Notes under the pieces: model-generated
Told to the model about the DNA's origin: nothing
The model's database searches: none
Seen by the model: the letters and a program-made list of their open reading frames with translations, nothing else
Translations under genes and position numbers: made by a program
Shown: positions 98-23,652 of the stretch, piece after piece
How the letters are laid out: the number at the start of each line of letters is the position of its first letter
Position numbering within the stretch: position 1 is the first letter of the stretch
From: Calditrichaceae bacterium
Lineage (GTDB): Bacteria; Calditrichota; Calditrichia; Calditrichales; JBFXGD01
Direction: 5' to 3'
Assembly (NCBI GenBank): GCA_050173015.1
Contig: JBFXLE010000034.1
Location: forward strand, 1 to 24,769
Length of the DNA stretch: 24,769 bases

Positions 98-147
98 AAG
101 TGGGAAGTAAGAAGTAGGAAGTAAGAATTAAGAACGTTAAGAGTAGG
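98..147 (+). repeat. purine-rich heptamer tandem repeat (AAGTGGG/AAGTAAG/AAGTAGG...)
   Basis: Degenerate 7-mers. Bases 105-144 align to 24263-24303 with one indel and one mismatch. Confidence 0.8.
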
Positions 148-883
148 ATTGTCCCAATTTGGGCGCCCGGTCACTTATCCTGAATACAAACTGCCTCTCC
201 CACCAAACCCTTTTTTCAGCAGCAAGCGTCAGCCGAAAATTATTCTCCGTGGCGATGGAGGCGATCCGCCCGATTTCCACACCATCACTCAAACTCATCA
301 GCGCGAGGCTATCGGGATGGAGATACGGTTTGAGTCCGGCGAACAACTTCCGAAAGTACTCAAAATTTTCACCGCGGTACCAGGCGTAATCCGCTTCATT
401 TTTGGGAATGCCCGGATAGTACGGCGGATTAATCACAATGATGTCATATTTTTCTTCCGGTAGCCGCTCAAAAAGATCCGATCGCAGGATATTTATATTT
501 ACATGATTTTTGACGGCGTTTTCCTTTAAATTATCGACGGCGGTCCGGCTGATATCTGTCGCCGTTACTTTCGCGCCTCTTTTCGCGGCCCATATGGAAA
601 TGAGACCGCTGCCCGCTCCAGGCTCCAGCAGTGTCTTGTTCTTAAGCTCGATATTTTCCAGATAGTTTATCAAAAATCGTGTACTGAAAAAGAAGCCGGG
701 GTGAAAAACGCCGGGGGCGATTCGCAAATGAATATCTTTATAATGGTAAGAATGAGGAAAGCGCAGATAGATGGAAAGCGGGGGCTTTATCACTGTCGCC
801 GCAAACAGACGGAGTATCTTCCGTAAACCGGATGTTTTAAACCGCGCCCGATCTTTTTTGGCGATGGTTAACGCGCCGGGCAT
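137..883 (-). CDS. class I SAM-dependent methyltransferase, HemK/PrmC/MTS-like (NPPY motif)
   Basis: Motif I LLEPGAGSG, ATDIS, SDLF and DIIVINPPYY, plus the N-terminal GVFHP motif. The ATG is 1 nt after the stop of the upstream radical SAM gene. Confidence 0.85.
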   Translation of the reverse strand: MPGALTIAKKDRARFKTSGLRKILRLFAATVIKPPLSIYLRFPHSYHYKDIHLRIAPGVFHPGFFFSTRFLINYLENIELKNKTLLEPGAGSGLISIWAAKRGAKVTATDISRTAVDNLKENAVKNHVNINILRSDLFERLPEEKYDIIVINPPYYPGIPKNEADYAWYRGENFEYFRKLFAGLKPYLHPDSLALMSLSDGVEIGRIASIATENNFRLTLAAEKRVWWERQFVFRISDRAPKLGQSYS

Positions 884-884
884 A

Positions 885-2390
885 TCAAAATCCTTCCACT
901 TCCGGATGGCGGTACCGGAGCCAGAATCGTTGGAGAATTTTCAGCTCGTATGGCATACGGAACCGGTTCTTCTCATACCGGAATCGCGACAGGGTTTGCA
1001 TTACCCTCCGCTGAAACCGGGATAATTTGATATCGGAAACCGTCGGGAAGCGAGCGTTTAGCACCGTTTCAAAATTCAGGATCTTTTCAATCATCTCCGG
1101 GGTGAGCCAGGGTGTCAGCGGATTCTTGCGGAGATCAAAATTTTCCCATTCCGGACTCAGCCAGTCTTCCAGCTTTTCGGGGAAACGGAAGCCGCTTTTT
1201 TGAACCGCGTCGAACAATTCCGATCCTTCCGTCGGGACCGGACTGTACACATAGATAATGATCTCGGTGGCCGGATTGATCTCCTTGATCTCTTTAATAA
1301 ACGCGATATCGCTGTCGATCTGCCGCGTCACCTGTTCGGGCGTATTGGCCGGGGTGCCGAGCACAAAGGAATACTCCGGGATAATATCAAATTTGGCCAG
1401 ACGGGCAGCGAATTTTTTGATCTGTTCACCGCTTTGGGAACCGCCCTTGTTCATCTGTTTTAATACGGCGTCGTTTCCCGTTTCCGCCCCAAAAAAGATC
1501 ATCTTACACCCGGATTCTCTCATCTCACGGAGCGAGTCATCAGAGTAATAACTTACCGTATCGATCCGCGCTTCGCCCCACCAGTTCATTTTTTCGGGTT
1601 TGATCAGCCGGGCAAATTCAACAGCGCGTTTTTCGGATACAAAAAAATTATTATCATGAAATTCTATCGCGTCGGCTCCGTATGTTTCTTTCAGATATTT
1701 GATATCATCATAGATTCTTTGTGCCGATTTGCCTTTCCAGCGGGCTTTGTAAATGGGAACGACGGCGCAAAAAGAGCAGAAAAACGGACATCCGGCGCTG
1801 GAATGATAAGCGGCCGTTTTATTTCCCAGACAGGTTTTACCGAGATAGCCGTCCATGGAATAGGTTTGAGACAGTTTTTCGTAAGGCAGGGATGGCAAAA
1901 GGTTTTGATCCGGTATGGGAGTCTCCGGGGTTTTAATGATCTGGCCATCGCGCTTGAAAATAAGGTTACTGACGCTGTCGGTTGATTTCCCGGCTTCAAG
2001 ATGATTCAGCAGAGCGGGCAGGGTCTCGTCACCCGGACCGGATACCACGAAATCAACAAACCCGGAATTGAGCGCCGCCTGATACTGATTACCCGCGAAA
2101 TAACCTCCCCAGATGATCATCACCTTTGGGAAAAACCGGCGTATTTTTTTCGAGAAGGGAATGGCCTGTTTCAGTTGCATCGCGGGCATGGTGGTGCAAC
2201 CAAAATATCTGAATTCACCTGTCCCAAGATAGTTGACAATCGTCGTCCAGGGATCTTTTTCCCGGTTGCCGTCCACAAAAACATAGTCGAATTTCCCATC
2301 CAGCGCGGCTCCCAGCTGAAGAATGGTGTTGGGAATACGGTGTTTCGATTTGGCGCTGCGCGGATTAAACAGAATGACTTTGTTTCTCAT
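885..2390 (-). CDS. cobalamin (B12)-binding radical SAM protein
   Basis: N-terminal B12-binding domain (VILFNP, IIWGGYF, DFVVSGPGD), CPFFCSFC (CxxxCxxC), FHDNNF and FFGAETG. Confidence 0.92.
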   Translation of the reverse strand: MRNKVILFNPRSAKSKHRIPNTILQLGAALDGKFDYVFVDGNREKDPWTTIVNYLGTGEFRYFGCTTMPAMQLKQAIPFSKKIRRFFPKVMIIWGGYFAGNQYQAALNSGFVDFVVSGPGDETLPALLNHLEAGKSTDSVSNLIFKRDGQIIKTPETPIPDQNLLPSLPYEKLSQTYSMDGYLGKTCLGNKTAAYHSSAGCPFFCSFCAVVPIYKARWKGKSAQRIYDDIKYLKETYGADAIEFHDNNFFVSEKRAVEFARLIKPEKMNWWGEARIDTVSYYSDDSLREMRESGCKMIFFGAETGNDAVLKQMNKGGSQSGEQIKKFAARLAKFDIIPEYSFVLGTPANTPEQVTRQIDSDIAFIKEIKEINPATEIIIYVYSPVPTEGSELFDAVQKSGFRFPEKLEDWLSPEWENFDLRKNPLTPWLTPEMIEKILNFETVLNARFPTVSDIKLSRFQRRVMQTLSRFRYEKNRFRMPYELKILQRFWLRYRHPEVEGF

Positions 2391-2471
2391 GATTTGCCGC
2401 CTGTCATGGACAAGATGAAGTCCCCGCTTATTTTATATCCATTTAAATAATGTTAAGATTGATTTCATCCT

Positions 2472-3779
2472 TTATAACCTAACTTCCCGCAAAACCATTT
2501 CATGCTTTAATAATTGCCATTTTTCGATAAGCAGATAAGAGATAAGCATCAGCCATTGGGTCATCGCGGCCGCGGCGATGGCGCCGGTAATCCCGAACAA
2601 TGGAATAAAGATCAGGTTCAGGGTCAAATTTGAAATGATCCCGCCGATGTTCACATAGACCACCTGATTCTGCCGGCCGGTTTTAAATAATAAATAAATC
2701 CGTGTGATGTAATAATAAACCGGGATGGCGTATATCCCGCCCCAAAAAAGAGCCATAATGGGAATTTCAACCTGATAGATCCAGTGTATAACCGCGAAAA
2801 TAACCGGTATGCCTGCCAGAGTGATGCCCGTTCCCGCCAGGACTAGTTGCAGAGATAGTTTATTCAGAACAGCGTTTCCCATCCGGTATATGTTTTTTAT
2901 AAACGGCTGGATAATTACGTTGGCCACGATCTGTATATAAATCAATAGATTAATGAAAATCTGATACGCGCCGGCATCCTTTTCCGGCAAGAACCAGGTT
3001 ACACAGTAAAGATCCATTTTTGACTGAAGCATTCCCGTAAGCCCGAGAGCAAAAAACGGAAATGCCGCGGTAAAGATTCGGATCCGGAAACGCAGGGAAA
3101 ATCGTTCAAAGATATCTTTTGCGAAAATGAAGATGAGTATCATTCCTTTTAAAATGATACTTCCCATAAAAAGAACGCAGATCAGATTCAGGGTAAGCCT
3201 GTCACTGAATAACATGATACCGCCCGCGAGAAGCAGGGTGACGGAGGCTTCCGCCGCGAAGGCCGGAACAAATTTCCGCTTGTAAACAATCAGAGCTTCA
3301 AAAGACTGACAGATCATCGCTCCCGCCATCCAGAAAACGATAACCCATTTTTGAATCACGTGAACAGGGATAAAAAACAAAAGAAAAACGGCAATTCCGA
3401 ATAAAATCATCCTGCTTTGGATGTTTTCCTGCCAAATTTCAGAAATGGATTGGGGATGATTGCTTATATCCCGCAGGACAAATTCTTTGTTTCCCCAGTA
3501 CAGAATGTGGTTCACCAGATTCATTACGATAAGTACAGCAACAAATCCGCCCCACAATTCAACCGATTCAAAGCGTACGATCAGCAGAGAGATGAACACG
3601 GAAAGCACAGGCGTTATCAGTGTGTAGAGCGAGTTGCCCAAAACTGGAATCAGGCGTTTCCGTGTTCTGCGGTTAAAAGGATACAATATTTCTCCCAAAA
3701 CAATGATTCGTGTTCTATCTGATAGGCCCTTTTGTTCTGTTTGCCACCGATGGTCCGAAATAAATTTCATGATAATCAT
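2472..3779 (-). CDS. Wzx/MATE-like oligosaccharide flippase (polysaccharide biosynthesis protein)
   Basis: Many hydrophobic helices, KMDLYCV...AGAYQ and the C-terminal NLTLNLIFIPLFGITGAIAA typical of Wzx/Polysacc_synt_C. The start is uncertain: the ATG at 3779 overlaps the upstream GT by 65 nt, and an in-frame TTG at 3698 is a plausible alternative. Confidence 0.8.
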   Translation of the reverse strand: MIIMKFISDHRWQTEQKGLSDRTRIIVLGEILYPFNRRTRKRLIPVLGNSLYTLITPVLSVFISLLIVRFESVELWGGFVAVLIVMNLVNHILYWGNKEFVLRDISNHPQSISEIWQENIQSRMILFGIAVFLLFFIPVHVIQKWVIVFWMAGAMICQSFEALIVYKRKFVPAFAAEASVTLLLAGGIMLFSDRLTLNLICVLFMGSIILKGMILIFIFAKDIFERFSLRFRIRIFTAAFPFFALGLTGMLQSKMDLYCVTWFLPEKDAGAYQIFINLLIYIQIVANVIIQPFIKNIYRMGNAVLNKLSLQLVLAGTGITLAGIPVIFAVIHWIYQVEIPIMALFWGGIYAIPVYYYITRIYLLFKTGRQNQVVYVNIGGIISNLTLNLIFIPLFGITGAIAAAAMTQWLMLISYLLIEKWQLLKHEMVLREVRL

Positions 3780-4854
3780 TTACGGTTTCATTAATTGTTT
3801 TCAGCAGAATCGGGCTGTGATCCTGGGCCGTTCTCATAAGGCTGCTGATTGCTTCAACGAAATTTTCATTATTTTTACAAATTACCGTTTTATGGCCGGA
3901 TTCCGGATAACCGGTATCATGTTTTACCAGGTAAAGTCCCGCGAAAAGCGCTTCGAGAAAAACATATCCCTGCGCCTCATATTCCGACGTATGCAGAAAA
4001 ATCCGGCTTCGTGTGAGAAATGAAATAACTTCTGCCCGGCTTAAATGACCCGTCAGCCGGATGTTTTTATCAAGATTCAGACCGGTAATCATTTCCGCAA
4101 GCTGATCACGCTCCGTGCCATCGCCGATGATGACGCACCGGATATTTGGAAATTCGATTCTCAGCTCATAAATGATTTCAATAAACAACCGGAAATTTTT
4201 TAACGGGATCAGCGCGCCGACGCCGATGATATCGATATCGCGTTGGCTGTGATTCTGCGAAAATTCAGGCATATCCCGGTCAATACCGATGGGAATGATG
4301 TGATCTGTCGTCCGGCCTGTCGATTCAAAAAAACGGCGCGCCGCCGTTTGCGATCCGCAGGTCACGGTCATTTTGGAGAAATTCAGCCGCCGGAGATATG
4401 GATTCGATTTGAGAGCATCCTGTCCCATGGCCGATGCCACATGCGCCGCTCCGAGAATCCCCGCCAACCATTGTCCGATCAGGGTTGTTTCACTCAGCCA
4501 GAAACTGTGGATGACAGATATCTTTGCGCCGGCGCGAATCCGGATCAGAACCGCCGCCGCGCGAAACCAGACCATCAGACGGAAAATTCCGCCTTTATTT
4601 TTTCCTCCGCAGCTGTAAACGGAGATGTGATTCCGATAATACCAGCCGCGGATAAACGGGTATTGAAAAGCAATGACGATTGTTCGCAAACCCGGATGTG
4701 TTTGAGAAAAATGCAGGATATAATTCTGCAAAGCGGGAATACAGGAAGTGTCCTTTTCATCCTCCGGGAATCCGGGCACAAGAAATACGATTAGTTTCTC
4801 CGTTTTTTCGGATGACAGTCTTTTCATTTTAGAGCCTGAGCTTATATAAATCAT
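3715..4854 (-). CDS. glycosyltransferase family 4 (GT-B fold)
   Basis: IIGVGALIPLKN, IIGDGTER, LTGHLSR and an EX7E motif (EAQGYVFLE). Start at 4854 or the next Met. Confidence 0.88.
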   Translation of the reverse strand: MIYISSGSKMKRLSSEKTEKLIVFLVPGFPEDEKDTSCIPALQNYILHFSQTHPGLRTIVIAFQYPFIRGWYYRNHISVYSCGGKNKGGIFRLMVWFRAAAVLIRIRAGAKISVIHSFWLSETTLIGQWLAGILGAAHVASAMGQDALKSNPYLRRLNFSKMTVTCGSQTAARRFFESTGRTTDHIIPIGIDRDMPEFSQNHSQRDIDIIGVGALIPLKNFRLFIEIIYELRIEFPNIRCVIIGDGTERDQLAEMITGLNLDKNIRLTGHLSRAEVISFLTRSRIFLHTSEYEAQGYVFLEALFAGLYLVKHDTGYPESGHKTVICKNNENFVEAISSLMRTAQDHSPILLKTINETVNDYHEIYFGPSVANRTKGPIR

Positions 4855-4917
4855 TACCGGCGTTCATCAATAGCGATTATCCTGAAAATGGGTTCTGTAC
4901 TCTTCAGCTTAGCGGGA

Positions 4918-5718
4918 TTACTCTCCCTGATCGATCGCGATCCAGGGAAACGGGCGTCTGATTATTCCGAAAAAACGGTTTGTCAATCTGCCGGGATTGA
5001 ATAAAACGCGATGATTGAATGAAATCAGGTCGTCAAATGAATGATGAAAATATAATCCGGCTAAATCCGGGAAGCCAATATCCTTATAGTAAGCAAATGA
5101 ACGCTCCCTGGCTTTGACGATTTCACCGGAGTCATACACCGGGCTGTCAATGATATGAATTTCCCCTTTTGGGGAAAGAATTCTAAATAACCGCCCCATC
5201 AGCGCCTTTAAATCGGGAAAGTACTGAATGGAGCTGGCGAGCAGAATGATATCAAAACGTTCAGATTGAAAAATATCATCAAAAATATTAGCGTAAACGA
5301 AATGTATTTGCGGGTTTGAACCGGACACTCTTGCCGCCTGCTCAAGCTCAATGCTGTTTACATCCAAACCGTAAACGGTGCTTTTTGGCAATGCCGTCAG
5401 ACGGCGGGCCAGCCACCCGTTGCCGCAGCCAATCTCAAGTATTGTGAGCCCGTTTCCTCTTTGCGATAAATAGGATTTTAGCTGCCGGAATGATTCCGCC
5501 CGGATTTTCCACTCACTGTAATAGGGGTGCTTTTTACCGATTTCGGGGAGAAGCCTGACGATTTCATCCGTATATATTCTACCTTCTTTTTTTCTGAGCT
5601 TTAGATATTTTTCTTCATATGTAAGGAAGGTATCCGGCGAAGAAAGATACCTCACCTGATTACGCGACGGTTTGTGATCTTTGGTGGCCGTTTCATTTTT
5701 CGCGGGCTTGTCTTCCAT
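4918..5718 (-). CDS. class I SAM-dependent methyltransferase
   Basis: ILEIGCGNG, YGLDVN, FDIILLASSIQYF and LSPKGEI. Strong RBS (AAGGAGG) just upstream of the ATG at 5718. Confidence 0.9.
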   Translation of the reverse strand: MEDKPAKNETATKDHKPSRNQVRYLSSPDTFLTYEEKYLKLRKKEGRIYTDEIVRLLPEIGKKHPYYSEWKIRAESFRQLKSYLSQRGNGLTILEIGCGNGWLARRLTALPKSTVYGLDVNSIELEQAARVSGSNPQIHFVYANIFDDIFQSERFDIILLASSIQYFPDLKALMGRLFRILSPKGEIHIIDSPVYDSGEIVKARERSFAYYKDIGFPDLAGLYFHHSFDDLISFNHRVLFNPGRLTNRFFGIIRRPFPWIAIDQGE

Positions 5719-5726
5719 ATACCTCC

Positions 5727-6545
5727 TTAATTTTTAACGATGGTCATGTCGGATTTGACCGGAACATCGGCGGCAGATTCCATATCCGGACTCCGGGGCG
5801 TCAGGACATAACATACATGGTCTCCCCCGAAAAAACCGGGCACATATGCGCCGATTTTCTTATCGGTTGACAACAGCCAATCCGTCAGGCTACGGAAAAC
5901 ACGCAGGCGGCGGTATTGCTCCGGTGAGGGCAGGATTGAACAAAGGTGGATTCGCCGGATGACGCGGAATCGGTTGCGGAAAGGCTTTGTCCCGTGATAA
6001 TAAATCTCTGTGTCCCTGATGATCAGATGTTTTCGTATAAGCCTTCGGAAGATCTGACCGAACTTGAACCGCATAAGCAGTTCGAGAATTGTGAAAAAAT
6101 GGAACGGCGGCATGGAAACTACCATAAGAATACCTTTTTTATTCAGCATGGATGTCAGACGGGATAATACATCCTTCAGATTTCCGAAAACATTAATCAC
6201 GCCAAAATTCAGAACGATAAAATCATATTTACGGCCGGGGATAAATTCTTCCAGGGAGGATTGAATGATCCGGGCATTGAGACGCCATTCTTCGGCGCGT
6301 CGCCGGGCAAGATCAATCATATTCCCCGAAACATCGATAGCGTCGATTTTAAGGTTAAAATGGCTGTAAAATTCAAAATCTGATCCGGGTCCGCATCCGG
6401 CATCAAGGATATGATCAGATTTTTCAAGAAAAGGGCGCATTTCCTCATGCGTTACGGCCCGTTGATACATCCCCAGCGGATGTTCATTGAACAGGGTTTG
6501 ATAGGACGCCGCATAGTTGTCGAACAACTTTTCAGCCGGCATCAT
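5727..6545 (-). CDS. class I SAM-dependent methyltransferase
   Basis: FDNYAASY, ILDAGCGPG, AIDVSGNM, YDFIVLNFG and LNKKG. The start overlaps the upstream stop (TGATG). Confidence 0.9.
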   Translation of the reverse strand: MMPAEKLFDNYAASYQTLFNEHPLGMYQRAVTHEEMRPFLEKSDHILDAGCGPGSDFEFYSHFNLKIDAIDVSGNMIDLARRRAEEWRLNARIIQSSLEEFIPGRKYDFIVLNFGVINVFGNLKDVLSRLTSMLNKKGILMVVSMPPFHFFTILELLMRFKFGQIFRRLIRKHLIIRDTEIYYHGTKPFRNRFRVIRRIHLCSILPSPEQYRRLRVFRSLTDWLLSTDKKIGAYVPGFFGGDHVCYVLTPRSPDMESAADVPVKSDMTIVKN

Positions 6546-7936
6546 CAGGCGGTTCTCACTGCTGACAGTTTCCGGATCTGGTAATCGCAGTATCGTGTCT
6601 TGATACCGTAAAACACCATTTTAAGCGTTGATCCGTCGTTGAGCGCGAGCTGTTTTTTTCTGAATTCACTGGCCAGTTTTCTTGAAGCGAACTTATACAA
6701 TTGCTTTGGAAACCGGTCCGCCATATCCAGTTCTCTCTGAAGCTGCTTTTCCCAGGGGGAATGATAAATGACTATACCGCTGAATTCCTCATACATGGCG
6801 GTGCCGCGCAGGGGGTAGGCAACGGTGGTGAGATAGTGATCGGGTTGCAGGTCGCGTATGAACCGTATCGTTTCCAGAATATCGGTCAGTTCTTCTCCGG
6901 GGTATCCGAACATGACAAAAATACCTGATTCGATGTGAAACTTGCGGCATAATCCGGTCGCTTCACGGATCTGCTGCCGGGTGACGCCTCTGGACATGGC
7001 GTTAAGCACATGCTGACTGCCGGATTCAGCGCCGTACCAGATTCGGTAACAGCCGAGTTCCCTGAGTATGGTGACAATTTCTTCATCCAGCCGGTCGGCG
7101 CGCGCGATACATTCGAAAGGCAAATGAATGTTTTCAGCTTTCATCAGCTTATGAAAATTCTGAAGCCAGCGTTTACTAACCGTAAAAACATCATCGGCGA
7201 ACCATAGATGAGTGGGATTGTATTTTTGAATGATTTCTTTTATTTCCGCGATTACATTTTCCGGTGACCGGCGCCGGTGAGTGAATCCGTAAACGGAATG
7301 ACTGCACCATTTGCATGTAAACGCGCATCCTCTCGCGGTTACAAGAGAAACAGGACGCTGTTTATGATGTTTCTCCCACACGTGCAGGTATCTGTTCAGA
7401 TTAATGGCCTCCCGGTCAGGAAACGGAAAATCATTAAGACTTCTCCGACTCGCGCAGCGCTGATTCTCCACAATTTTGCCATTTGAATCCCTGAAACTGA
7501 CATTGGGGATATCATGCAGAAAATACAGCCCGTTCTTTTTAAGGCGGTTGACAACCGATAAAAAGACTTCTTCGCCCTCTCCTGAAATGACGATATTGGC
7601 GCCGTAATTTAAAAATTCTTTCACCTGGGTGGAGGCGTCAGGCCCGCCGAGAACGGAGATGATTCCTTTCTTTCTGCAGTAGCGGATGAGTTTCATGACA
7701 TTATACTTGGTTAACAGATTGCAGTGGATTCCAAGCACATCAGGTTTGGCGCGGTTTAGAAATCGGATAAGTTTTGGGAATGAAGAAAATGTCGTATCAT
7801 AAACCGACACATCGATTTCGTTCTGTTTGAGATAAGCGGAAAGATAAAGCAGTCCGAGAGGCGGATACGGTTTCATTATTCTTTTTTCCTGCTCGTCTTC
7901 TTTTAAAAAATAGGTATGTGCCAGGATGACTTTCAT
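6545..7936 (-). CDS. cobalamin (B12)-binding radical SAM protein
   Basis: YPPLGLLYLSAYL, VLGGPDAS, GEGE, ARGCAFTCKWC, FADDVF, GAESGS, FGYPGE and YPLRGT. Confidence 0.93.
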   Translation of the reverse strand: MKVILAHTYFLKEDEQEKRIMKPYPPLGLLYLSAYLKQNEIDVSVYDTTFSSFPKLIRFLNRAKPDVLGIHCNLLTKYNVMKLIRYCRKKGIISVLGGPDASTQVKEFLNYGANIVISGEGEEVFLSVVNRLKKNGLYFLHDIPNVSFRDSNGKIVENQRCASRRSLNDFPFPDREAINLNRYLHVWEKHHKQRPVSLVTARGCAFTCKWCSHSVYGFTHRRRSPENVIAEIKEIIQKYNPTHLWFADDVFTVSKRWLQNFHKLMKAENIHLPFECIARADRLDEEIVTILRELGCYRIWYGAESGSQHVLNAMSRGVTRQQIREATGLCRKFHIESGIFVMFGYPGEELTDILETIRFIRDLQPDHYLTTVAYPLRGTAMYEEFSGIVIYHSPWEKQLQRELDMADRFPKQLYKFASRKLASEFRKKQLALNDGSTLKMVFYGIKTRYCDYQIRKLSAVRTA

Positions 7937-8011
7937 TAATGGTTTTCCCGTCGATTATATTGTTGTTAATGAAACATTTTTACTGTTCCGCGGCTTAATA
8001 TTTCAAAAATC

Positions 8012-9445
8012 TCATTGCGTGTAGCGCATCATTTGCACTCTGTATTTAAACATACCCGGCAAGTGTCTGGACTGCGCGGCCAAACGACGCAGACGGTTAT
8101 AGATTGACTGATCACGGAACAAGGACAGAAATCCGAAATAGTGATGCGTGTATTTGTGAAGCGCGCGGTAGAAGTCGGGATGAAATTTTCCCGGATACAT
8201 CAATGCCAGATCGCCGCTGTCCTCCCAGTTTTTCTTCTCGCCCATCATGGCATGGACTTTTTCATAAAACGGAGTTCCTTTTAAAGGATACGACACGGAG
8301 ATGCCGATATGATCAGGTTTGCAGCGTCGGATAAGTTCAAGGGTTTTCTTTATATCACCGATATCTTCACCGGGGTAGCCGTATTGCAAAAAGAATCCTG
8401 TTTTTATCCCGTGCTTTTTTAATATCCGGTTTGCCTCAATAATCTGTTCAATGGTTGTGTCCTTATCCATCGCGTCCAAAATCTTTTGAGAACCGGATTC
8501 CACGCCCATCCAGATTTCGGCGCACCCTGAGCGGGCCAGTTCGGAAACATGGTGTTCATTCATCAGATCCGCCCGGGACTGAATTTTATAGGGAATTTTG
8601 ACATTCAGTTTTTGCAGGGCATCGGCGAACTCAGAAATCCACCCGGGTTGAAGCGCGAATATATCATCGGTGACCCAGATTTGATCTGCCTTTAATATCT
8701 TTGACAGATATTGGAATTCCAATGCCACTTTTTCCGCCGGACGCGCTTTGTAACTTCGCCCATAGAGCGGTTTCGCGCACCAATTGCAACGAAACGGACA
8801 ACCGTGTGAAGTGGAAATGTTTAACGCGAAGATTCCATGAAAAGTTATCCACATTTTTCGGTACGGATTCAGATCTATTTTTTCCCAGGCCGGCATGGGC
8901 ATATTTTCCAGCGGGAACGGTTTTTTATTTGGCGGTGTCGCGTCCGGCTTGCCTTCTCCGTTAAGAAAGGAGACGCTCGGTAACTGTTTCAGACTTTCGG
9001 TTGAAGCTGTTTCGGCGTAGGCGCTTAAAAAATCAAAAAAGACACTTTCCGCGTTCCGGTGAACTATAAAATCAAATCCTTCTTCCAAATATGCTTCAGC
9101 CTGATCGGAAGCGTCAGATCCATGACCGATAAACAGACATTTCTTATTGACGCGTTCCAGAAAACGGAAAATCGTTTGGCGCATATTTCCCAGGCACATT
9201 TTTGTCAGATAATTAAAATCATCATCATATAAAATAAAAATATCAGGCTTAAATTTATTTACCTCCTCCAGGAGGCCCTGCTCGTTTTCGTCAAACATCA
9301 CATCATAAAATTGAACTTCAATTCCCGGTAAGTCCTGAATAAGAGCGATAAGATAAAGTGGCGCCAACGGCGGGAAAGGCTTGTGGTTCAAGGCTTCCTT
9401 GGGATCCAGCTTTAAAAAATAGGAATGACTGATGAGTATTTTCAT
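8012..9445 (-). CDS. cobalamin (B12)-binding radical SAM protein
   Basis: FPPLAPLYL, GHGSDAS, SHGCPFRCNWC, TDDIF, GVESGS, YGYPGE and YPLKGTPFY. ATGA overlap with the upstream gene. Confidence 0.92.
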   Translation of the reverse strand: MKILISHSYFLKLDPKEALNHKPFPPLAPLYLIALIQDLPGIEVQFYDVMFDENEQGLLEEVNKFKPDIFILYDDDFNYLTKMCLGNMRQTIFRFLERVNKKCLFIGHGSDASDQAEAYLEEGFDFIVHRNAESVFFDFLSAYAETASTESLKQLPSVSFLNGEGKPDATPPNKKPFPLENMPMPAWEKIDLNPYRKMWITFHGIFALNISTSHGCPFRCNWCAKPLYGRSYKARPAEKVALEFQYLSKILKADQIWVTDDIFALQPGWISEFADALQKLNVKIPYKIQSRADLMNEHHVSELARSGCAEIWMGVESGSQKILDAMDKDTTIEQIIEANRILKKHGIKTGFFLQYGYPGEDIGDIKKTLELIRRCKPDHIGISVSYPLKGTPFYEKVHAMMGEKKNWEDSGDLALMYPGKFHPDFYRALHKYTHHYFGFLSLFRDQSIYNRLRRLAAQSRHLPGMFKYRVQMMRYTQ

Positions 9446-10293
9446 GATACCGCCCTCTCCTTGACAACATGAAAATTCTTATCATAGACATGCTGATGAT
9501 CCACCCGGTGCAGCTTGGCGACACCGGAGCCAAGGATAATACTTTTACCGATCTGTTCCGGATATTTGCGTTCCAGACGACCCCGGTATTTTTTATAAAT
9601 AAACCGGTTTACCCGTGAGAGCAATGGCAAAGACTTTGTTCTTCTTTCGGGATGATCGCCGCGAATCAAATAATTGGAATCAATTTCAAAAGAATCCCCG
9701 GCATTTGGCAAACAATCAAACAGCCAGGAGTTCTTATAAATCAGGCGCTCTTTATAATTTTGATTAAAGAGCGGTTTCATTTGTACTAACTGAACCGCTG
9801 CGTAATAGTTTTTCGGCAGGAGAGTCAGGTTGTTTTCATCGACGAGATAATTCAGGCAAAGCCGCTCTCTCTTACCGGTGATTTTGCCAAACAATACGAT
9901 CATGAGATAGGTTATCCACAACTTATCCACATTTGTCACCATGAACAGATCTATATCATCATCTTTTTTGCACGATTCAAAAGCATTCGCGCCGGTCAGA
10001 CCGATAAACCGGACCCATGGAAGGCGGGACAGGAATTTCAGTTCAAAATGATACCGTTTTAGCAAAGCCCGGCTGAACTGTTGCTTTTCATGACACTGTT
10101 CATCAATCTCACTTTTCATGAGCCGCGAATTTTTCTCCGCGATTATTTCTTCATCAATGAGTTCATTGATACAATCATTATATGTTTTTTTTGATACAGG
10201 AATTTTTAAAAACCGATACACCTGATCCCGCGTGAAGGCGCTTCCAAACGCATGAGCCATTTCTATGGTGGTTAAAATTTCATCATTAAGCAC
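9442..10293 (-). CDS. putative nucleotidyltransferase-fold (pol-beta superfamily) protein with N-terminal winged-helix-like region
   Basis: FIGLTGANA...DDDIDLFMVT resembles the hG[GS]x9-13Dh[DE]h NTase signature, with A replacing S. It overlaps both neighbouring genes. Confidence 0.65.
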   Translation of the reverse strand: MLNDEILTTIEMAHAFGSAFTRDQVYRFLKIPVSKKTYNDCINELIDEEIIAEKNSRLMKSEIDEQCHEKQQFSRALLKRYHFELKFLSRLPWVRFIGLTGANAFESCKKDDDIDLFMVTNVDKLWITYLMIVLFGKITGKRERLCLNYLVDENNLTLLPKNYYAAVQLVQMKPLFNQNYKERLIYKNSWLFDCLPNAGDSFEIDSNYLIRGDHPERRTKSLPLLSRVNRFIYKKYRGRLERKYPEQIGKSIILGSGVAKLHRVDHQHVYDKNFHVVKERAVS

Positions 10294-11488
10294 GAGCGGC
10301 GCTCCTGATATTTATGGTACTGGCGTAAGCCTGAGATACCTGCCGGACGCAAGAGTCCCAGCTTAAGGAATCAATAGTATCTTTTGTAATTCGGTTTTTA
10401 AATCCGCAATTTATTTCACTCATAATCACTTTAGCCCAATTGGATATGTCCGGTTTAGTCAGAATTACTTTCCGGCTCCCGAAAATTTCGCTTGTCACCC
10501 CGTTTTCGAGCAGAAAGACCGGGAGATGATGAGCAAGCGCCTCGAAGGGGGTAAAGCCGAATCCTTCGTATTCAGACGCGTTAATAAAGAAATCAGCGCC
10601 TCCGTAAAACCGAGTCAATTCCGTTTCAGAAACGGATTGCCGGATTTTGATTTCAGTTCTGTAAGGCGAACGCTTTTTTGTTTTTAGGATTTCAGAATAA
10701 CCATTATTCGCGTGACCTATTAAAACAAGTTGATGAGGAAGATGGTATTCCGCTTTTAAATGATTAAACAGATTGATGATGAACGGGATATTTTTACGTT
10801 TTTCAAAACTATTGACGGAAAGGATGAATTTTTGGCTGTCCTGTTCATTGGTTCCGCGCAATGGAATCATCGGCTTAAGGTGATCGGTCCCCGGATAAAT
10901 GATCCTGAGTTTATGACGGTATTGAGGGAAAATCCCGGATACGGAATTCTGAGTTGTTTTTGAGACGGTTATCACCAGATCGGCGCGCCTAAGGAAATGC
11001 GGAATACGATTTCCAAAATAGAGTCTCTTCGCGCGCGGGTATTGAGCGGGGCGTTGTATGAATCCCATATCATGAAATGTGGTGATGATTTTGTAATCCG
11101 GATGGATTGGCGGACAGATATAATGAGTCGCGTGAAACAGACTTACATTTTCATTGAGAAGAATTTTTTGCAGACCGTATTCATAAAAGTATAACTGATG
11201 CAGCCTGTTTCTAATCGGGACCGGAAAAATTTTGTCCCCATCCTGTAGATATGACTTAAAAAGATTTACATGATCCGGTTTACAGAATATGATGAGCCGG
11301 AACTCACGATGAGATTGTAGAAGGCCGATGGCAAGATGATAAATATAATTTGCCGCCCCCGAAAAACGGGTGGGGAGAGCGATGCAGTCGATCCCGATAA
11401 CGGCTAAATCATCGGCTTTATGGACCGAACCGGGAAGAATCATTCTTTTATGTGGCGCATCCGTGCTTTCTTCAGTTAAATTATTCAT
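10286..11488 (-). CDS. glycosyltransferase family 4 (MtfB-like)
   Basis: SGAANYIYHL, TFHDMGF, ADLVITVS, EKRKNI and SEYEGFGFTPFEA (EX7E). First gene of the operon; the start may be the second Met. Confidence 0.9.
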   Translation of the reverse strand: MNNLTEESTDAPHKRMILPGSVHKADDLAVIGIDCIALPTRFSGAANYIYHLAIGLLQSHREFRLIIFCKPDHVNLFKSYLQDGDKIFPVPIRNRLHQLYFYEYGLQKILLNENVSLFHATHYICPPIHPDYKIITTFHDMGFIQRPAQYPRAKRLYFGNRIPHFLRRADLVITVSKTTQNSVSGIFPQYRHKLRIIYPGTDHLKPMIPLRGTNEQDSQKFILSVNSFEKRKNIPFIINLFNHLKAEYHLPHQLVLIGHANNGYSEILKTKKRSPYRTEIKIRQSVSETELTRFYGGADFFINASEYEGFGFTPFEALAHHLPVFLLENGVTSEIFGSRKVILTKPDISNWAKVIMSEINCGFKNRITKDTIDSLSWDSCVRQVSQAYASTINIRSAARA

Positions 11489-11652
11489 AGGATTACTTCA
11501 AAATACAGCGGTTTTGTATTCATTATCTAAATCAAAATAATTGGTTTTTATTCCTGCGATGGACATTTAAGAGGCGTTCCTGGCTGATTTTGAGGACAAT
11601 TGGCCTTTTGCAGCGTAAAATACGTGAAGAATATATTTGTAAGAGATTAATT

Positions 11653-12024
11653 ATGTATGATTTTCTCAATTACTTTTTTTATATATTTCATTCGGTTTTG
11701 ATCATATTCAATCTTACCGGCTGGCTATGGAAAAAGATCAGGAACTGGCATTTTTACAGTATTTCTCTTACAGCTCTCTCCTGGTTTGGGCTTGGGATTT
11801 TTTATGGATGGGGGTACTGCCCCTGCACAGACTGGCACTGGCAGATAAGGAGGAAAGCAGGCATCACAGATATGCCATCGTCATATATAAAATTTTTGCT
11901 GGATAAAGTGACCGGTCTCGATCTCAACGCGTTTTTTGTGGACTTGATGACAGCGGTACTTTTTTTTGCCGTGTTGATCATCGCCATTGTTTTAAAACTG
12001 AAGCGTCGCGCGGAATTTTCTTAA
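11653..12024 (+). CDS. DUF2784-like small membrane protein
   Basis: FH...FNLTGW, SWFGLGIFYGWGYCPCTDWHW and SYIKFL, with three hydrophobic segments. Start set at ATG 11653 rather than TTG 11590. Confidence 0.75.
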   Translation: MYDFLNYFFYIFHSVLIIFNLTGWLWKKIRNWHFYSISLTALSWFGLGIFYGWGYCPCTDWHWQIRRKAGITDMPSSYIKFLLDKVTGLDLNAFFVDLMTAVLFFAVLIIAIVLKLKRRAEFS

Positions 12025-12167: not shown

Positions 12168-13184
12168 CTAAAATTCTGTCAGTTTAAAACCGGTTTCTGT
12201 TTTCAGATTATCGATATAAGTTTCATATGCTGCATTTTGTTTATTTCTCTTTAATTCACCTTCAAGTTCAGCGCGGACTTCTTCGAACGGGCGTGTATCC
12301 TTTTTCCGGTTGACGATTTGCAGGATATGATAGCCATACTGTGTTTCCACGATATCGGAGATTTCACCCACCGGTACGGAAAACGCCGCTTTGTCGAAGG
12401 GCGGCACCATAGCGCCTCTTCCGAAATCTTCATATAAACCGCCATTTTCCTTTGATCCCGGATCTTCTGTATATGTTTTGGCGAGTTTCGCGAAATCTTC
12501 ACCCTTTTTCGCGCGGGCAAGAATCCCTTCCATTTTTTTGTAAACTTCCTGCTTCAGCGAATCATTTTTCCCCTGGGTGCTCAGCAGAATGTGACGGACG
12601 CTCGCCGTCTGGTCCTGATTATAGACTTCTTTGATCTCTTCTTCCGTTACATTTGTTTCATCAGCAAGCTTGGTATCAAGAAAATGTTGAATGGTCAGCG
12701 CGTCGCGCATATCATTACGGACATATTCTATATCCATTCCGGCTTTGGCCAGGTATTCCATAAATTTTTCTTTGCTGCCGGCTCTTAGGTATTGCTGATT
12801 TAAAAGGCTGTCAATTTCCGTTTCGGCAACTTTTGAGCCGCCTTTTTTGGCCGCGGTCAAAAGAATTTTTTTATCCGCTAAATTTTGGACTACGTCTTTC
12901 ATAATACGGTTAAGAGTATTGATATCCATCGATTTCAACTGATCGGCGCGGGCGCCAAAATTGGTCTGGATGGTTTCAAGAACTTCCCCGGCGGTGATGT
13001 CAAACTCGCTGGATGAAGCCAGCACTTCATTCTTCTCAGGATCCAAATACGCGAGCTTTGTTGAGATATCTACCCCTAACTGATAAGCCGGCGTACCCTT
13101 TTCCAGTTTAACACTTTTTTCCTTTTGGGAGCAGGAAAACAACATGGCTGAAAACAAGACGAGTAAAACAATAATTTTCTTCAT
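12168..13184 (-). CDS. parvulin-type peptidyl-prolyl isomerase lipoprotein (PrsA/SurA-like foldase)
   Basis: Lipoprotein signal MKKIIVLLVLFSAMLFSC, a SurA-N-like helical region, and rotamase motifs VRHILL, FAKLAKTYTEDPGS, MVPPFDKAAF and ETQYGYHIL. RBS AGGAG. Confidence 0.9.
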   Translation of the reverse strand: MKKIIVLLVLFSAMLFSCSQKEKSVKLEKGTPAYQLGVDISTKLAYLDPEKNEVLASSSEFDITAGEVLETIQTNFGARADQLKSMDINTLNRIMKDVVQNLADKKILLTAAKKGGSKVAETEIDSLLNQQYLRAGSKEKFMEYLAKAGMDIEYVRNDMRDALTIQHFLDTKLADETNVTEEEIKEVYNQDQTASVRHILLSTQGKNDSLKQEVYKKMEGILARAKKGEDFAKLAKTYTEDPGSKENGGLYEDFGRGAMVPPFDKAAFSVPVGEISDIVETQYGYHILQIVNRKKDTRPFEEVRAELEGELKRNKQNAAYETYIDNLKTETGFKLTEF

Positions 13185-14137: not shown

Positions 14138-17100
14138 ATGACTCGTAGAGGACTATCAGCAGGTATTTTTCTGTCATTTTTGATTATTATCGCATTTCTT
14201 ATATCCGTAAATCGTGACCAGACATTTTCACTAAAAACCACGGCGAATAATCTTCTCCTTGATGAAACAAATCATACACAGGTAATTGATACCAAAAAAG
14301 CGATTGTCAAAGGAAAAGGGATATGGTCCGAAAGAAAAAAGAAGATCAAAGGATTCGCAAAGAGTGATGCGCCAGATATGTACGCGCAAATTCACCGGGA
14401 AATCCGTACACGGGACGGCGAACAGAATCCGGGTTATAAACTGAATTATAAGATTGATGAATTAAATAAAGCCGTTTCAGGATTGTCACTAAAATCGCTG
14501 AATAAATCAGCCGCCGCTCTGGACTGGGTGGAGAGAGGTCCGGGAAATGTCAGCGGTCGTACAAGGGGACTGATTGTTGACCCGGACGATGCCACACACA
14601 TGACCTGGTTTGCCGGTTCTGTGGGAGGCGGTATCTGGAAGACAACCGATATGGGGCAGACCTGGGTTGACAAAACTCCGGATCTTCCCAATTTGGCGAC
14701 CACGGTACTTGCCATGGCCGAATCAAATCATGATATTATTTACGCCGGGACCGGAGAAGGTTTCTTCAACAGTGACGCGGTAAACGGAAACGGGATTTTT
14801 AAATCGGAAGATCGTGGTGAGACATGGACGCAGCTGACATCCACGGCGAATAATCTAGATTTTCAAAACATCAACAGAATTGTGGTGAGTCCAACCGATC
14901 CGGATGTCGTGCTGAGCTGCGCCAATACAGGCTTTGTTGTTTCATCGGGCAGTCGAACATCAACCATTCAGAAATCCACCGACGGCGGAGTCACCTGGAC
15001 GGAAGTTTATGATGCCGGCGGATCGAGAATTCAGCATATTGTCGCCAATCCGCAGAATTTTAACACCTTATACGCGACAGTCAACGGAGTCGGCGTTGTT
15101 AAATCCACCGATGCCGGAGATACCTGGCAATTATCTTCAGACGGGATTGGCGCCGCGTCACGAATAGAACTGGCCATCGCTCCGACTGACACCGCACGGA
15201 TTTATATCGCGGTGGAAAATGGTGAAGAATCGGATTTATATGTCTCAGAAGACGCGGGCGCAACCTGGACAATCTCCCTGGATCAGTCCGAGACGAATCC
15301 AAAATGGCTCGGAGGACAAGGCTGGTACGATAATACAATCGCCGCGCACCCCTATAATGAAGATATTGTGTTTGTCGGCGGAATCGATGTTTGGAAAATT
15401 GAATTACAACCCGGCACGGACACCACATCCGCCATTACCGGCGTTGAACAAAATAATACGCAATCGTTTTTCGGATTTATCAATTGGGGTGGTCCTTACG
15501 CGGGTGGTGGTTTAGGTACCGGCGATGATTTTCTGGGGTCCGCGGGTGTTGAGCCGGAGGATTACGCGACCGTTGAAATTCGATTTGGCCCGGGAATTTC
15601 CCAGAAAGCGCATCGTTTTGTACGGGATGGCGTCACAGGTGATTATCTTTATCAGGATTATGTCGATGTGCCATTTGAAGTCTGGGATATCACCAATAAC
15701 CGACAGTTAATGACATCCTTCAGAGACTGGGCCAATAACGGCGTATTTGATTTGATAGCTTATGACGGGAATAATCTTCAGCGTGAATATATTTTTGTAA
15801 ACGCGACTCCCTATGACGCTGTTAATCCGGATGCCACGATTCCTCAAACGAACGGATTTATGTGGAAAAATATTTACGCCATGTGGCCGATTTTGGCGAC
15901 AGGCGGCACCTGGGATCCAAACAATCTCCCTGAATCCAACCTTAGAATCAATTATGAAACGGTTATAACCAAAGTCAGATTAACCACACCGGTTACAGAC
16001 GGTTATAATCAGTATGGAAAACCATATATTCATGTAGATCAACATAATCTGGTGATGATTCCCACCAATCCGGAAACGGAAGAATTCTGGATCCTTAACG
16101 GCAATGACGGCGGCGTGGCTTATTCCACTGACGGGGGTACAACCTGGGCAGAGGCTCTTAACGGCGGTTATAACACTACACAGTTCTACGGCGTTGATAA
16201 AAAACCGGGCGCGAATGAATATATCGGCGGAACTCAGGATAACGGTACATGGAGGTCACCTAAAGCTGAGGATGCCAATCTGAATTCCGTGTATCTTAAA
16301 CAGCTGGGCGGGGATGGTTTTGAGACCTCCTGGCATTATACCGATCCTCTGAAAATTGCGGTATCCAGTCAGTTTAACAATATCTGGCGAACCCTTGACG
16401 GCGGGTTGTCCTATCTTCCCGCGAGTGACGGATTGGGTGATGATGGCGCGTTTATTACCAAAATCGCGAAATCACAAAGTGATCCGGACTTACTCTTTAC
16501 CGTCGGATCCGCGGGTGTGTACCGGACGGATAATTTCGCGGAGAATTGGACATTAACACCCATCTCAGCAGATTGGGGTTTTAGCAGTTCATTTACGGAA
16601 GTCAAAATCTCCATCGCCAATCCACAAATCGTTTGGGCAGGGGCGAATATGGGATCGAGCGGTAAAATTCAGGTTTCCGTCGATGGCGGTCTGAATTTTT
16701 CATCGACCGTAAATTACGACGCGGTCACACTGGGCAGGATTTCCGGTCTGGATACCCATCCGATTGAAGATTCGACGGCGTATGTACTCTTTTCCATCGC
16801 CAACGCGCCAAAAATTTTACGTACCACGGATCTTGGACAGACCTGGCAGGATATAAGCGGATTCGGCGCCAACTCATCAAGCGGCAACGGATTTCCGGAT
16901 GTTGCCACATATTCTCTGCTGGTGATGCCTTATAACACCGATATTCTTTGGGCCGGAACGGAGATCGGAATTTTCCAGTCGCTTGACAACGGAGTAAGCT
17001 GGGCTTATCTGAACGAGGGTTTACCGGCTGCTGCCGTGTGGGATATGCGTATTGTGGATGATCAGGTAGTGGTGGCGACCCATGGCCGCGGCATCTGGTC

Positions 17101-20221: not shown

Positions 20222-20751
20222 AGCTGCTTCCTTTCGAGGGGATTTTATCCAATAAAATTTTGAGCGCGTGATGATAATCTAAGGATTATCAGAGTTTAAT
20301 AAAATAGCGAAAGTAGATACTACCCAAAAATTAAATAATTTTCAGAGAATCTTTTTGAGACATAATGAGCTGCGGAAATTTTAAGATCTCCGCAGGCCGG
20401 GGGTTAACAAATTACCGGTAAATCCGGCAGAAAAGCGACGTACTTGCAAGTTGTCCCGGTAATTTGCAAGTTTATATTTTGTTTTCAAAATGAATCTATT
20501 TGTAATGCATTCCGTACTAAAGATGTGAAACCGGGTTCGATGAAAGAACATAGTTTTTCAATAAGGCAATAAATGATAATAAATATGCGTTAAGTGCTGA
20601 GAATTTGAAATTGGCTTATCCATTAAAATTCATTCTTATAATATTTTTCCAGGCCGGTCTTAATTCGGAGCATCGTTCTTTTTTATAACAGGATTTTATA
20701 TAGATGATCTTAATCAATATTTTTAATTCGCAAAGAATAAAGGAGATTTGC

Positions 20752-23551: not shown

Positions 23552-23652
23552 GTTTTATGCGTGGCATGAAGAAATTTTCGGGTAGAAATTAGCGTTCAGC
23601 TCTCTATCAATACCTAACGGAAGAACTATTACACAATTAAGGAGTGACGGCC

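Follow-up and report, generated by a model that had tools for sequence, protein, structure and literature searches.

A widespread nucleotidyltransferase, radical SAM enzyme and methyltransferase cassette that may tailor a lipid-linked surface glycan

What might a bacterium make with three radical S-adenosylmethionine (SAM) enzymes, three SAM-dependent methyltransferases, a nucleotidyltransferase-like protein, two glycosyltransferases (GTs) and a flippase encoded in one operon? The question is raised by a contig of a Calditrichaceae bacterium (GenBank assembly GCA_050173015.1, JBFXLE010000034.1, positions 1 to 24,769). This stretch of 24,769 nucleotides, hereafter the window, was analysed together with its genome (G000, 97.5% complete) and with related genomes and loci, labelled here with G and L numbers (C numbers are contigs). 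The ten genes belong to a real, widespread and uncharacterised cassette, the invariant unit of which is a three-gene core, NTL-RS1-MT1, accompanied by optional modules, and the window has nearly the full set. We propose, with a probability of about 0.6, that the cassette tailors a lipid-linked surface glycan or glycolipid by means of an unusual radical-modified building block. The genes, in the order of the operon, are the following.

GT4a, 10286..11488, minus strand: GT-B family 4 glycosyltransferase of 400 aa (PF00534/PF13439), with EX7E at residue 308
NTL, 9442..10293, minus strand: core gene; predicted winged helix followed by a Pol-beta/MNT-type nucleotidyltransferase domain; no covering Pfam model
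RS1, 8012..9445, minus strand: core radical SAM enzyme of 477 aa (PF04055), with CxxxCxxC at 216-223
RS2, 6545..7936, minus strand: optional, putatively B12-dependent radical SAM enzyme of 463 aa with canonical GGP and GEGE motifs
MT1, 5727..6545, minus strand: core class I SAM methyltransferase of 272 aa (Pfam)
MT2, 4918..5718, minus strand: optional class I SAM methyltransferase of 266 aa (Pfam)
GT4b, 3715..4854, minus strand: GT-B family 4 glycosyltransferase of 379 aa (Pfam), with EX7E at 293; a flippase gene usually adjoins
FLP, 2472..3686, minus strand: predicted Wzx/MOP-fold flippase of about 404 aa from TTG 3686; optional, swaps with an ABC flippase
RS3, 885..2390, minus strand: optional radical SAM enzyme of 501 aa (PF04055), in a separate clade, with an invariant WGGYF
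MT3, 137..883, minus strand: HemK2/N6AMT1-like NPPY methyltransferase of 248 aa, partner of RS3

These ten open reading frames (ORFs) agree with a preliminary description of the operon in coordinates, orientation, order and junctions. GT4a and NTL overlap by 8 nt, NTL and RS1 by 4 nt (ATGA) and RS2 and MT1 by 1 nt (TGATG); MT1 and MT2 are 8 nt apart, RS3 and MT3 1 nt, and the other intergenic gaps measure 75, 63 and 81 nt. A DUF2784 gene (11590-12024, plus strand) is divergent from the start of the operon, the end of which lies 136 nt from the end of the contig. The Pfam scan returned the two GT4 enzymes (PF00534), three Radical_SAM proteins and three class I methyltransferases already described, with a weak GT4-conflict match for GT4a. 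NTL and FLP had no Pfam match above the cut-off, and none of the operon's proteins reached an NCBIfam cut-off. Rfam matched nothing in the window, where promoter-like sites (15 vs 21.7 in shuffled sequence) and terminator-like sites (12 vs 15.4) were not in excess.

The preliminary description had taken the ten genes for a single pathway and had set their co-conservation across phyla as a test beforehand. This co-conservation was upheld, and a lack of it, named there as counting against the pathway, was not what we found. An RS3-anchored scan of GTDB confirmed at least 482 of at least 599 candidate stretches, from which the best 80 loci (61-70% identity, picked by similarity, from Bacteroidota, Ignavibacteria and Calditrichia) were used, 40 of them with full flanks. 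MT3 was found in 57 of these loci (31 of those with full flanks), RS1 in 49 (29), MT1 in 46 (29), NTL in 41 (27), GT4b in 33 (18), MT2 in 32 (12), RS2 in 15 (12), FLP in 7 (6) and GT4a in 1 (1). The grouping is not a matter of chance, since 36 of the 40 full-flank loci had one or more of the nine remaining genes and 29 had four or more; related genomes not being independent, these and the following co-occurrence counts should be read as a pattern and not as a statistical test. Frequent additional genes encoded a SPASM radical SAM enzyme, an ABC half-transporter, a priming sugar transferase, GT2, GT4, GT9, GT87, PMT-type GT-C and Wzy_C proteins, an amidohydrolase, a deacetylase and a flavin-reductase-like protein. 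The last of these (L046:8985-9956; a weak match to PF01613 at E 0.0014) was found close to RS3 in 18 of the 80 loci, in most cases immediately upstream, and is a candidate electron donor. An RS2-anchored scan, independent of the RS3 scan, yielded 80 metagenome loci (GC 0.33 to 0.73), with RS1 in 54, MT1 in 47 and RS3 in 26. The source names of RS2 proteins or their close relatives included Acidobacteriaceae, Bryobacteraceae, Anaerolineales, KSB1 and Gammaproteobacteria, and orthologues of the cassette were also assigned to Acidobacteriota, Chloroflexota and KSB1. Among 72,556 plasmids, RS1 and RS3 had distant matches only, the 15 best for each being at 22-27% identity.

The hierarchy within the cassette emerged from genome samples. 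In a set of 301 Bacteroidota genomes (that of Niastella soli and 300 drawn evenly from its phylum), RS1 orthologues scoring above 450 bits were found in 34, NTL in 38, RS3 in 21 and RS2 in 14. All 34 genomes with RS1 had NTL, and every genome with RS3 or RS2 was one of these 34. The four genomes with NTL and no RS1 comprised one with a broken core (G062) and two with GT4-NTL fusions, and in two an NAD-epimerase gene adjoined; in G062, NTL, RS1 and MT1 are all broken at one locus (L205, G062:C12:1-9000), which suggests joint decay. Of the 33 sampled RS1 loci, 32 could be scored; a distance of 7 kb around RS1 took in NTL in 31 of them, with NTL immediately upstream of RS1 or fused to it in 27, and MT1 in 28. 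Fusions join NTL to RS1 (814 aa, L189), RS1 to MT1 (727 aa, L190), MT2 to MT3 (L192, L208) and GT4 enzymes other than GT4a to NTL (L191-L194). RS1 or RS2 occurred in 22 of 86 Calditrichota genomes, including 15 of the 16 from one family, and 9 of 12 further Calditrichota loci kept the order GT4a-NTL-RS1-RS2, with variable tails; GT4a orthologues are almost confined to this phylum, where they head the operon. The tight coupling expected of one ten-gene pathway was thus confirmed, but only NTL-RS1-MT1 is invariant, with GT4a, GT4b, FLP, MT2, RS2 and the RS3-MT3 pair optional, and the module-wise presence of genes in the loci of relatives rules out ten genes as one fixed unit.

The first core protein had been described as nucleotidyltransferase-like, and this assignment held. 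In the AlphaFold2 model of NTL (pLDDT 90.7), residues 1-63 form a winged helix (Z about 10), and a Pol-beta-type domain comes next; the best Foldseek matches were MNT enzymes, at a weak E value of 1.7e-3. An NTP_transf_2 match was obtained for 22 of 57 family members, no cytidylyltransferase-like Pfam family matched NTL, and G101, D113, D115, W126, C146, N188 and W190 were invariant in 149 representatives, in which C146-x-N148 on the third strand was conserved at 100% and 99% and D152 at 66%. With its G[S/A]-x-DxD motif, NTL is placed by sequence in the Pol-beta-like nucleotidyltransferase superfamily. The family comprises 6,967 clusters at 50% identity (E<=0.001) and extends to Chloroflexota and Patescibacteria, where one Atlas cluster gains a cytidylyltransferase-like domain; six long members are fused to a GT4, a bacterial sugar transferase, NAD-epimerases (two), an MT2-like protein (P0120) and a GT2 plus methyltransferase. 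An MNT-HEPN toxin-antitoxin pair was ruled out, as no HEPN toxin gene adjoined NTL in the window or in 31 of 32 loci, the neighbours being RS1, GT4 or methyltransferase genes. Among the 80 RS2 metagenome loci, many of them on short contigs, 15 carried NTL, 16 an NTP_transf_5 protein (by a profile made from four such loci) and none both, and the NTP_transf_5 gene directly followed RS2 in 14 of the 16. The two proteins have only a short motif in common (hhalign probability 0.3), and their alternation looks like replacement by an unrelated enzyme. Nucleotidyl transfer would therefore belong to the chemistry of the pathway, which seems to need a nucleotidyltransferase.

The basic and hydrophobic helix conserved at residues 124-141 of NTL (mean of 4.2 K/R and 0.03 D/E in up to 149 representatives) raises the possibility that the core directly modifies the head group of a common membrane lipid or of lipid A, NTL activating a lipid phosphate, as Tam41 does, and the GTs glycosylating it afterwards. 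A common acceptor would account for cores that stand alone, and GT9 and GT87 genes are often neighbours. However, the hydrophobic moment of this helix is low (0.08 in the window protein), lipid-synthesis genes were not recurrent in the examined loci, and neither Tam41 nor LicD was among the fold matches listed for NTL, which were dominated by the winged helix. We regard this alternative as very unlikely.

By their CxxxCxxC motif and PF04055 match, RS1, RS2 and RS3 are assigned to the radical SAM superfamily, and the three cysteines were invariant in 104, 103 and 102 orthologues, respectively. All three had been described as B12 enzymes. This stands for RS2, which passed the B12-binding Pfam model PF02310 (52.3 bits, cut-off 32.1), but RS1 and RS3 scored 21.4, and at E<=1e-8 this domain was detected in 20 of 20 RS2, 14 of 47 RS3 and 5 of 43 RS1 orthologues. 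RS2 retains GGP (103 of 103 orthologues) and GEGE (95-100%), which we take to be cobalamin-pocket motifs, the glycine pair presumably lining the pocket. This pair is kept as WGGYF in RS3 (102 of 102) and replaced by S-D in RS1 (S 91%, D 98%, 104 orthologues), the window protein having RNAE where 90% of RS1 sequences have GE; RS1 also has a conserved DDxFNYLTKMCL motif. On these features, RS2 is classified as a class B radical SAM enzyme and is the best candidate for a radical C-methylase, and RS3 probably binds B12 and is a candidate methylase. RS1 may not be a B12 methylase: such a role is in doubt because the canonical cobalamin-pocket motif is missing. The six methylations implied by the preliminary description were consequently not borne out, only the B12 site of RS2 being fully canonical and that of RS1 degenerate. 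MetH scored above its cut-off in the host genome, which therefore appears to use B12. Passages of the literature on related enzymes indicate that three such radical SAM enzymes in one pathway need not be three methylases (PMC8950095), that AprD4 and ArsL fall in the same sequence networks and do not bind cobalamin (PMC12931638), that methylases do not share a conserved lower-axial residue (bioRxiv 10.1101/2021.07.10.451909), and that sequence separates methylases from non-methylases poorly (PMC9204698).

None of the three enzymes reached the NCBIfam cut-off for HpnJ, HpnR, BchE, PhpK, Sden_1168, AprD4, ArsL, MgmA, BzaD, ApyD or KedN5; the highest score was that of RS2 against PhpK (136.7 bits, cut-off 600), and the cut-offs ranged from 250 to 775. 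In a quick tree of 12 sequences sampled from each of the 106, 106 and 102 members of the RS1, RS2 and RS3 families, with HpnJ and BchE, both on long branches, as the only named outgroups, each family lay on one side of a branch (support of 100, 99 and 100), RS1 and RS2 were sisters (99), and HpnJ and BchE fell outside the three clades. The predicted model of RS1 has a Rossmann-type N-terminal domain and keeps the two-domain class 1 layout, as outlined in a part of PMC13331322. It matched OxsB (top), MgmA, TsrM, AprD4 and CysS about equally (Foldseek, 14-18% identity; TM 0.68/0.71 with AprD4); among solved structures, MgmA was closest in sequence to both RS1 and RS2. Assignment of RS1-RS3 to one of the radical SAM families with an NCBIfam model named above was thus rejected, the scores being below cut-off and the PDB matches at superfamily level. 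The other finding that had been named as counting against the pathway, enzymes that fall within a characterised family whose product needs no GT or flippase, was accordingly not made. At several likely functional loops the window proteins depart from the consensus (MPAMQ vs MPGPQ, conserved at 93-96%, in RS3; RNAE vs GE, 90%, in RS1; TGANAF vs SGSLSK in NTL), which may reflect a lineage-specific substrate.

Other B12-type radical SAM genes were noted in passing. The host genome has three more paralogues outside the cassette and with no cassette partners (C14:94506-95618, C20:56615-57463 and C43:15482-16222), and paralogues of relatives likewise lack cassette neighbours (L021, L023-L028); in other Calditrichota (L021, L023, L024, L025), two or three such genes lie in tandem in unrelated clusters. 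Four high-GC, probably acidobacterial loci (L162, L177, L179, L180) carry up to five B12-type radical SAM genes with a SPASM enzyme and an amidohydrolase, in some cases with a Wzy_C-TPR gene, the extra radical enzymes forming further clades. In one relative (G007, L016:12002-16717), genes for a URO-D/MtaA-like protein, a corrinoid protein, a PhyH dioxygenase, MtaB and a MetH activation domain, assigned as a corrinoid methyl-transfer set, are inserted between MT1 and RS3-MT3.

The methyltransferases were less informative as to substrate: the PDB matches of MT1 and MT2 were generic only, O- and N-methyltransferases being mixed. MT3 fell below the NCBIfam cut-offs for PRK14968 and hemK_rel_arch (81 bits vs 87 for the latter), matched MJ0882, N6AMT1, RsmC and HemK in the PDB, and has a conserved N152-P153-P154; it is likely an N-methyltransferase. 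This likeness to N6AMT1, HemK and RsmC, the winged helix and MNT-like fold of NTL, the MgmA match of RS1 and RS2 and the weak GT4-conflict match of GT4a would all suit modification of a macromolecule (protein, tRNA or DNA), with NTL binding nucleic acid or AMPylating a protein, MT3 methylating a glutamine or a base nitrogen, and a radical C-methylation of the MgmA type. However, all of these matches are at superfamily level (below cut-offs; 14-18% identity), no conserved substrate gene was found in the neighbour clusters, and the flippases and GT-C enzymes would be left unexplained. The operon gaps, of at most 81 nt, are too small for a precursor peptide, and no precursor gene for a ribosomally synthesised and post-translationally modified peptide was found in them, the neighbour clustering having taken ORFs of 100 aa or more. 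We consider such a macromolecular target highly improbable.

The proposal of a lipid-linked surface glycan or glycolipid relies on the genes that accompany the core. In 20 of 32 loci, a GT, GT-C, Wzy_C, priming transferase or flippase gene was present no more than 7 kb from RS1 (19 detected by custom hidden Markov models and one, a GT29, by Pfam) vs 9% of random spots in the host genome, the one genome used for this background; the models were trained on cassette neighbours, and the genomes, being related, do not count as independent. Of the 33 loci with GT4b, 17 have it next to a PglK-like ABC half-transporter gene and 3, in addition to the window, next to an FLP orthologue, and no locus has both. 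The 60 best PDB matches of the half-transporter include a single bacterial protein, PglK, matched over nearly its full length. That two unrelated flippases occupy one slot is the strongest sign of a lipid-linked oligosaccharide. The gene described beforehand as a flippase proved to be one in fold: FLP matched Polysacc_synt clusters with TM 0.81-0.86 over about 390 residues (Atlas predicted models) and has 11 transmembrane (TM) segments predicted by hydropathy, and it is modelled as a Wzx/MOP-fold flippase, a fold with about 12 TM helices. Its start, however, was displaced, as the longest ORF runs from 3779 and the most likely start is TTG 3686 (404 aa), with GGAGA upstream and 28 nt past the GT4b stop. 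Pfam detected no priming transferase, polymerase or GT-C in the window operon, which rules out a complete Wzx/Wzy pathway there; a priming transferase was found in 21 and Wzy_C in 16 of the 80 RS3 loci. In one locus (L227:7572-8594), a GT29 (sialyltransferase-like) gene lies inside the cassette, between MT1 and RS3.

Several observations weigh against this proposal. Eight of the 29 RS1 loci that are not truncated by a contig end close by lack a glycan gene within 7 kb (G058, G093, G113, G133, G136, G153, G245 and G293); the 12 loci lacking such a gene comprise these eight, three cut by contig ends and one with GT4b about 10 kb away. GT4a occurs with no flippase in 5 of the 12 further Calditrichota loci (L213-L215, L217, L222). 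NTL carries a winged helix, the folds closest to it are protein-AMPylating MNT antitoxins, and it seems to have Asn148 where a third acidic residue is usual on strand 3 of the Pol-beta-like fold. The NTP_transf_5 loci may represent a single lineage. An amidohydrolase gene was present in 12 of the 80 RS3 loci, a cytidine-deaminase-like gene follows MT1 in two loci (L198, L200), and a nucleoside phosphorylase gene lies near the cassette in two others (L204, L207), and these recurring nucleoside-type genes fit a nucleoside product too.

The core might then make a free modified nucleoside or nucleotide-derived small molecule by OxsB-like chemistry, with glycosylation and export as optional additions. 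Minimal three-gene loci with no GT or flippase (L190, L198, L199) agree with this, as do the deaminase, amidohydrolase, nucleoside phosphorylase and nucleoside transporter genes that adjoin the cassette, but these enzymes may merely clear the by-products of SAM, 5'-deoxyadenosine and S-adenosylhomocysteine. The exporters present are moreover lipid-linked-oligosaccharide flippases of two unrelated folds, and the retention of the cassette in 15 of 16 genomes of one Calditrichota family and its fixed site by PASTA-rpe genes in several genomes look housekeeping-like. OxsB, which tops the Foldseek matches of the RS1 model, acts on dAMP according to a section of PMC9204698. On balance we judge a free nucleoside product unlikely. 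The multiply methylated exported glycan of the preliminary description is supported in part and stays a plausible product, with glycan genes enriched nearby but the B12 pocket of RS1 degenerate and 8 of 29 uncut loci free of glycan genes.

A scheme for the tailoring of a lipid-linked glycan can be drawn from the observed gene content, coupling, modular hierarchy, folds and motifs, from which we infer substrates, products and catalysis. At the inner membrane face, NTL would put a nucleotide on a phosphorylated precursor and so form a substrate that is NDP-sugar-like or NMP-tagged, a step that we put forward tentatively. RS1, presumably coupled to NTL physically, would then carry out the committed radical step, more likely a rearrangement or deoxygenation of the AprD4, HpnJ or OxsB type than a standard methylation because its cobalamin pocket is degenerate, and MT1 would methylate an O or N atom. 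From what is known of these families, RS2 could optionally add a C-methyl group from methylcobalamin, RS3 and MT3 could add C-methyl and N-methyl groups, and MT2 a further O- or N-methyl. GT4a and GT4b might load the unit onto a lipid carrier or glycan for export by FLP, with GT9/GT87, PMT-type GT-C or Wzy-like enzymes completing the transfer outside in relatives; the destination would be a lipid-linked oligosaccharide bound for lipopolysaccharide, exopolysaccharide or protein glycan, or a glycolipid. The individual reactions have precedents in sections of the literature: Fom1, Fom2 and FomC provide the CMP-tagged substrate that Fom3 methylates, and FomD removes the tag (PMC8158854); MoeK5 in moenomycin and GenK and GenD1 in gentamicin synthesis perform C-methylation, and HpnJ contracts the ring of hopanoid glucosamine (PMC9204698); and the HemK-family enzyme AprI N-methylates an amino sugar (PMC9338882). 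A bolder version, which we think somewhat improbable as a whole, is that NTL and RS1 form a fused or closely coupled machine that nucleotide-tags a sugar or lipid phosphate and performs a cobalamin-independent radical rearrangement, placing a combinatorially methylated new class of building blocks on the cell surface. If true, this surface class would occur in roughly one in ten Bacteroidota, one in four Calditrichota and some members of several further phyla.

The open-literature search, confined to main texts and with few subscription journals in its range, turned up no description of the cassette or of its nucleotidyltransferase, radical SAM and methyltransferase core, and the pathway remains, as first suggested, uncharacterised. 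New here are the NTL-RS1-MT1 core and its hierarchy, the fusions, the nucleotidyltransferase and flippase swaps, the degenerate B12 site of RS1 and the glycan-free minimal loci. Characterised sugar-tailoring B12-domain radical SAM enzymes come mostly from antibiotic and hopanoid pathways, as reviewed in part of PMC9204698. If the proposed tailoring of a surface glycan or glycolipid is correct, it would amount to a widespread and undescribed envelope chemistry among bacteria of soils, fresh waters and sediments, with a possible bearing on phage or predator recognition, cobalamin demand and lipid or glycan biomarkers. The cassette also offers a first functional handle on the NTL family, with about 7,000 clusters and no Pfam model. 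Experiments could be kept small with a core of only three genes and a natural fusion of NTL to RS1, and cultured soil carriers include Niastella soli, Puia dinghuensis, Flaviaesturariibacter aridisoli and a Mucilaginibacter strain.

The remainder of the window encodes a PrsA/SurA-type rotamase (12168-13184, minus strand), a BNR/sortilin-like protein of 1,366 aa that carries a C-terminal sorting domain of the T9SS type (14138-18238, plus strand), an M16 peptidase (20704-23499, plus strand) and a nickel superoxide dismutase-like protein (23644-24135, plus strand). A 498-aa protein (18725-20221, minus strand) has a cyclic-nucleotide-binding domain fused ahead of a phosphofructokinase domain and is possibly a phosphofructokinase regulated by cyclic nucleotides.

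How does the cassette compare with known systems? The pairing of a nucleotide-transferring enzyme with a class B radical SAM enzyme recalls Fom1, Fom3 and FomD, and a metallophosphoesterase that could remove a tag, as FomD does, occurs in some related loci (L166, L202, L206, L207). Unlike Fom1, NTL combines a winged helix with a Pol-beta fold and lacks a cytidylyltransferase-like Pfam match, and unlike the fosfomycin genes the cassette is coupled to GTs and flippases, with no phosphoenolpyruvate (PEP) mutase in the genome or among recurrent neighbours. The absence of hopanoid and phosphonate genes noted at the outset was confirmed genome-wide: neither PEP mutase (TIGR02320) nor squalene-hopene cyclase (TIGR01507) was matched in G000, which rules out both pathways for the host. 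HpnJ, HpnR and BchE are top NCBIfam matches at superfamily level, and the substrate of HpnJ is a lipid-linked sugar, but the scores (51-130 bits) are far from the cut-offs (481-650), and in the tree neither HpnJ nor BchE joins any of the three clades of RS1, RS2 and RS3. As in Wzx/Wzy and PglK-type pathways and GT-A/flippase/GT-C systems, a GT4 gene adjoins a Wzx-fold or PglK-like flippase gene, and priming transferase, Wzy_C, GT87 or PMT genes occur in relatives; unlike in these systems, the window's operon lacks a priming transferase, polymerase and GT-C, and the constant part is the nucleotidyltransferase, radical SAM and methyltransferase core. Further parallels are MoeK5, GenK/GenD1 with GenN, and AprD4 with AprI, in which B12-domain radical SAM enzymes are found beside GTs and a HemK-family N-methyltransferase. 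RS1 shares its two-domain layout with AprD4, described in part of PMC12931638 as not binding cobalamin, but the cassette enzymes score at most 75 bits against the AprD4 model (cut-off 500). Differences are also seen in the gene complement, with no aminocyclitol or prenyl-phosphoglycerate genes among recurrent neighbours, and in the hosts, which are diverse Gram-negative lineages, the export genes encoding envelope flippases. By analogy, the cassette would act as do the radical SAM modules that tailor sugars in moenomycin, gentamicin and apramycin synthesis (PMC9204698), here set on the export of an envelope glycan.

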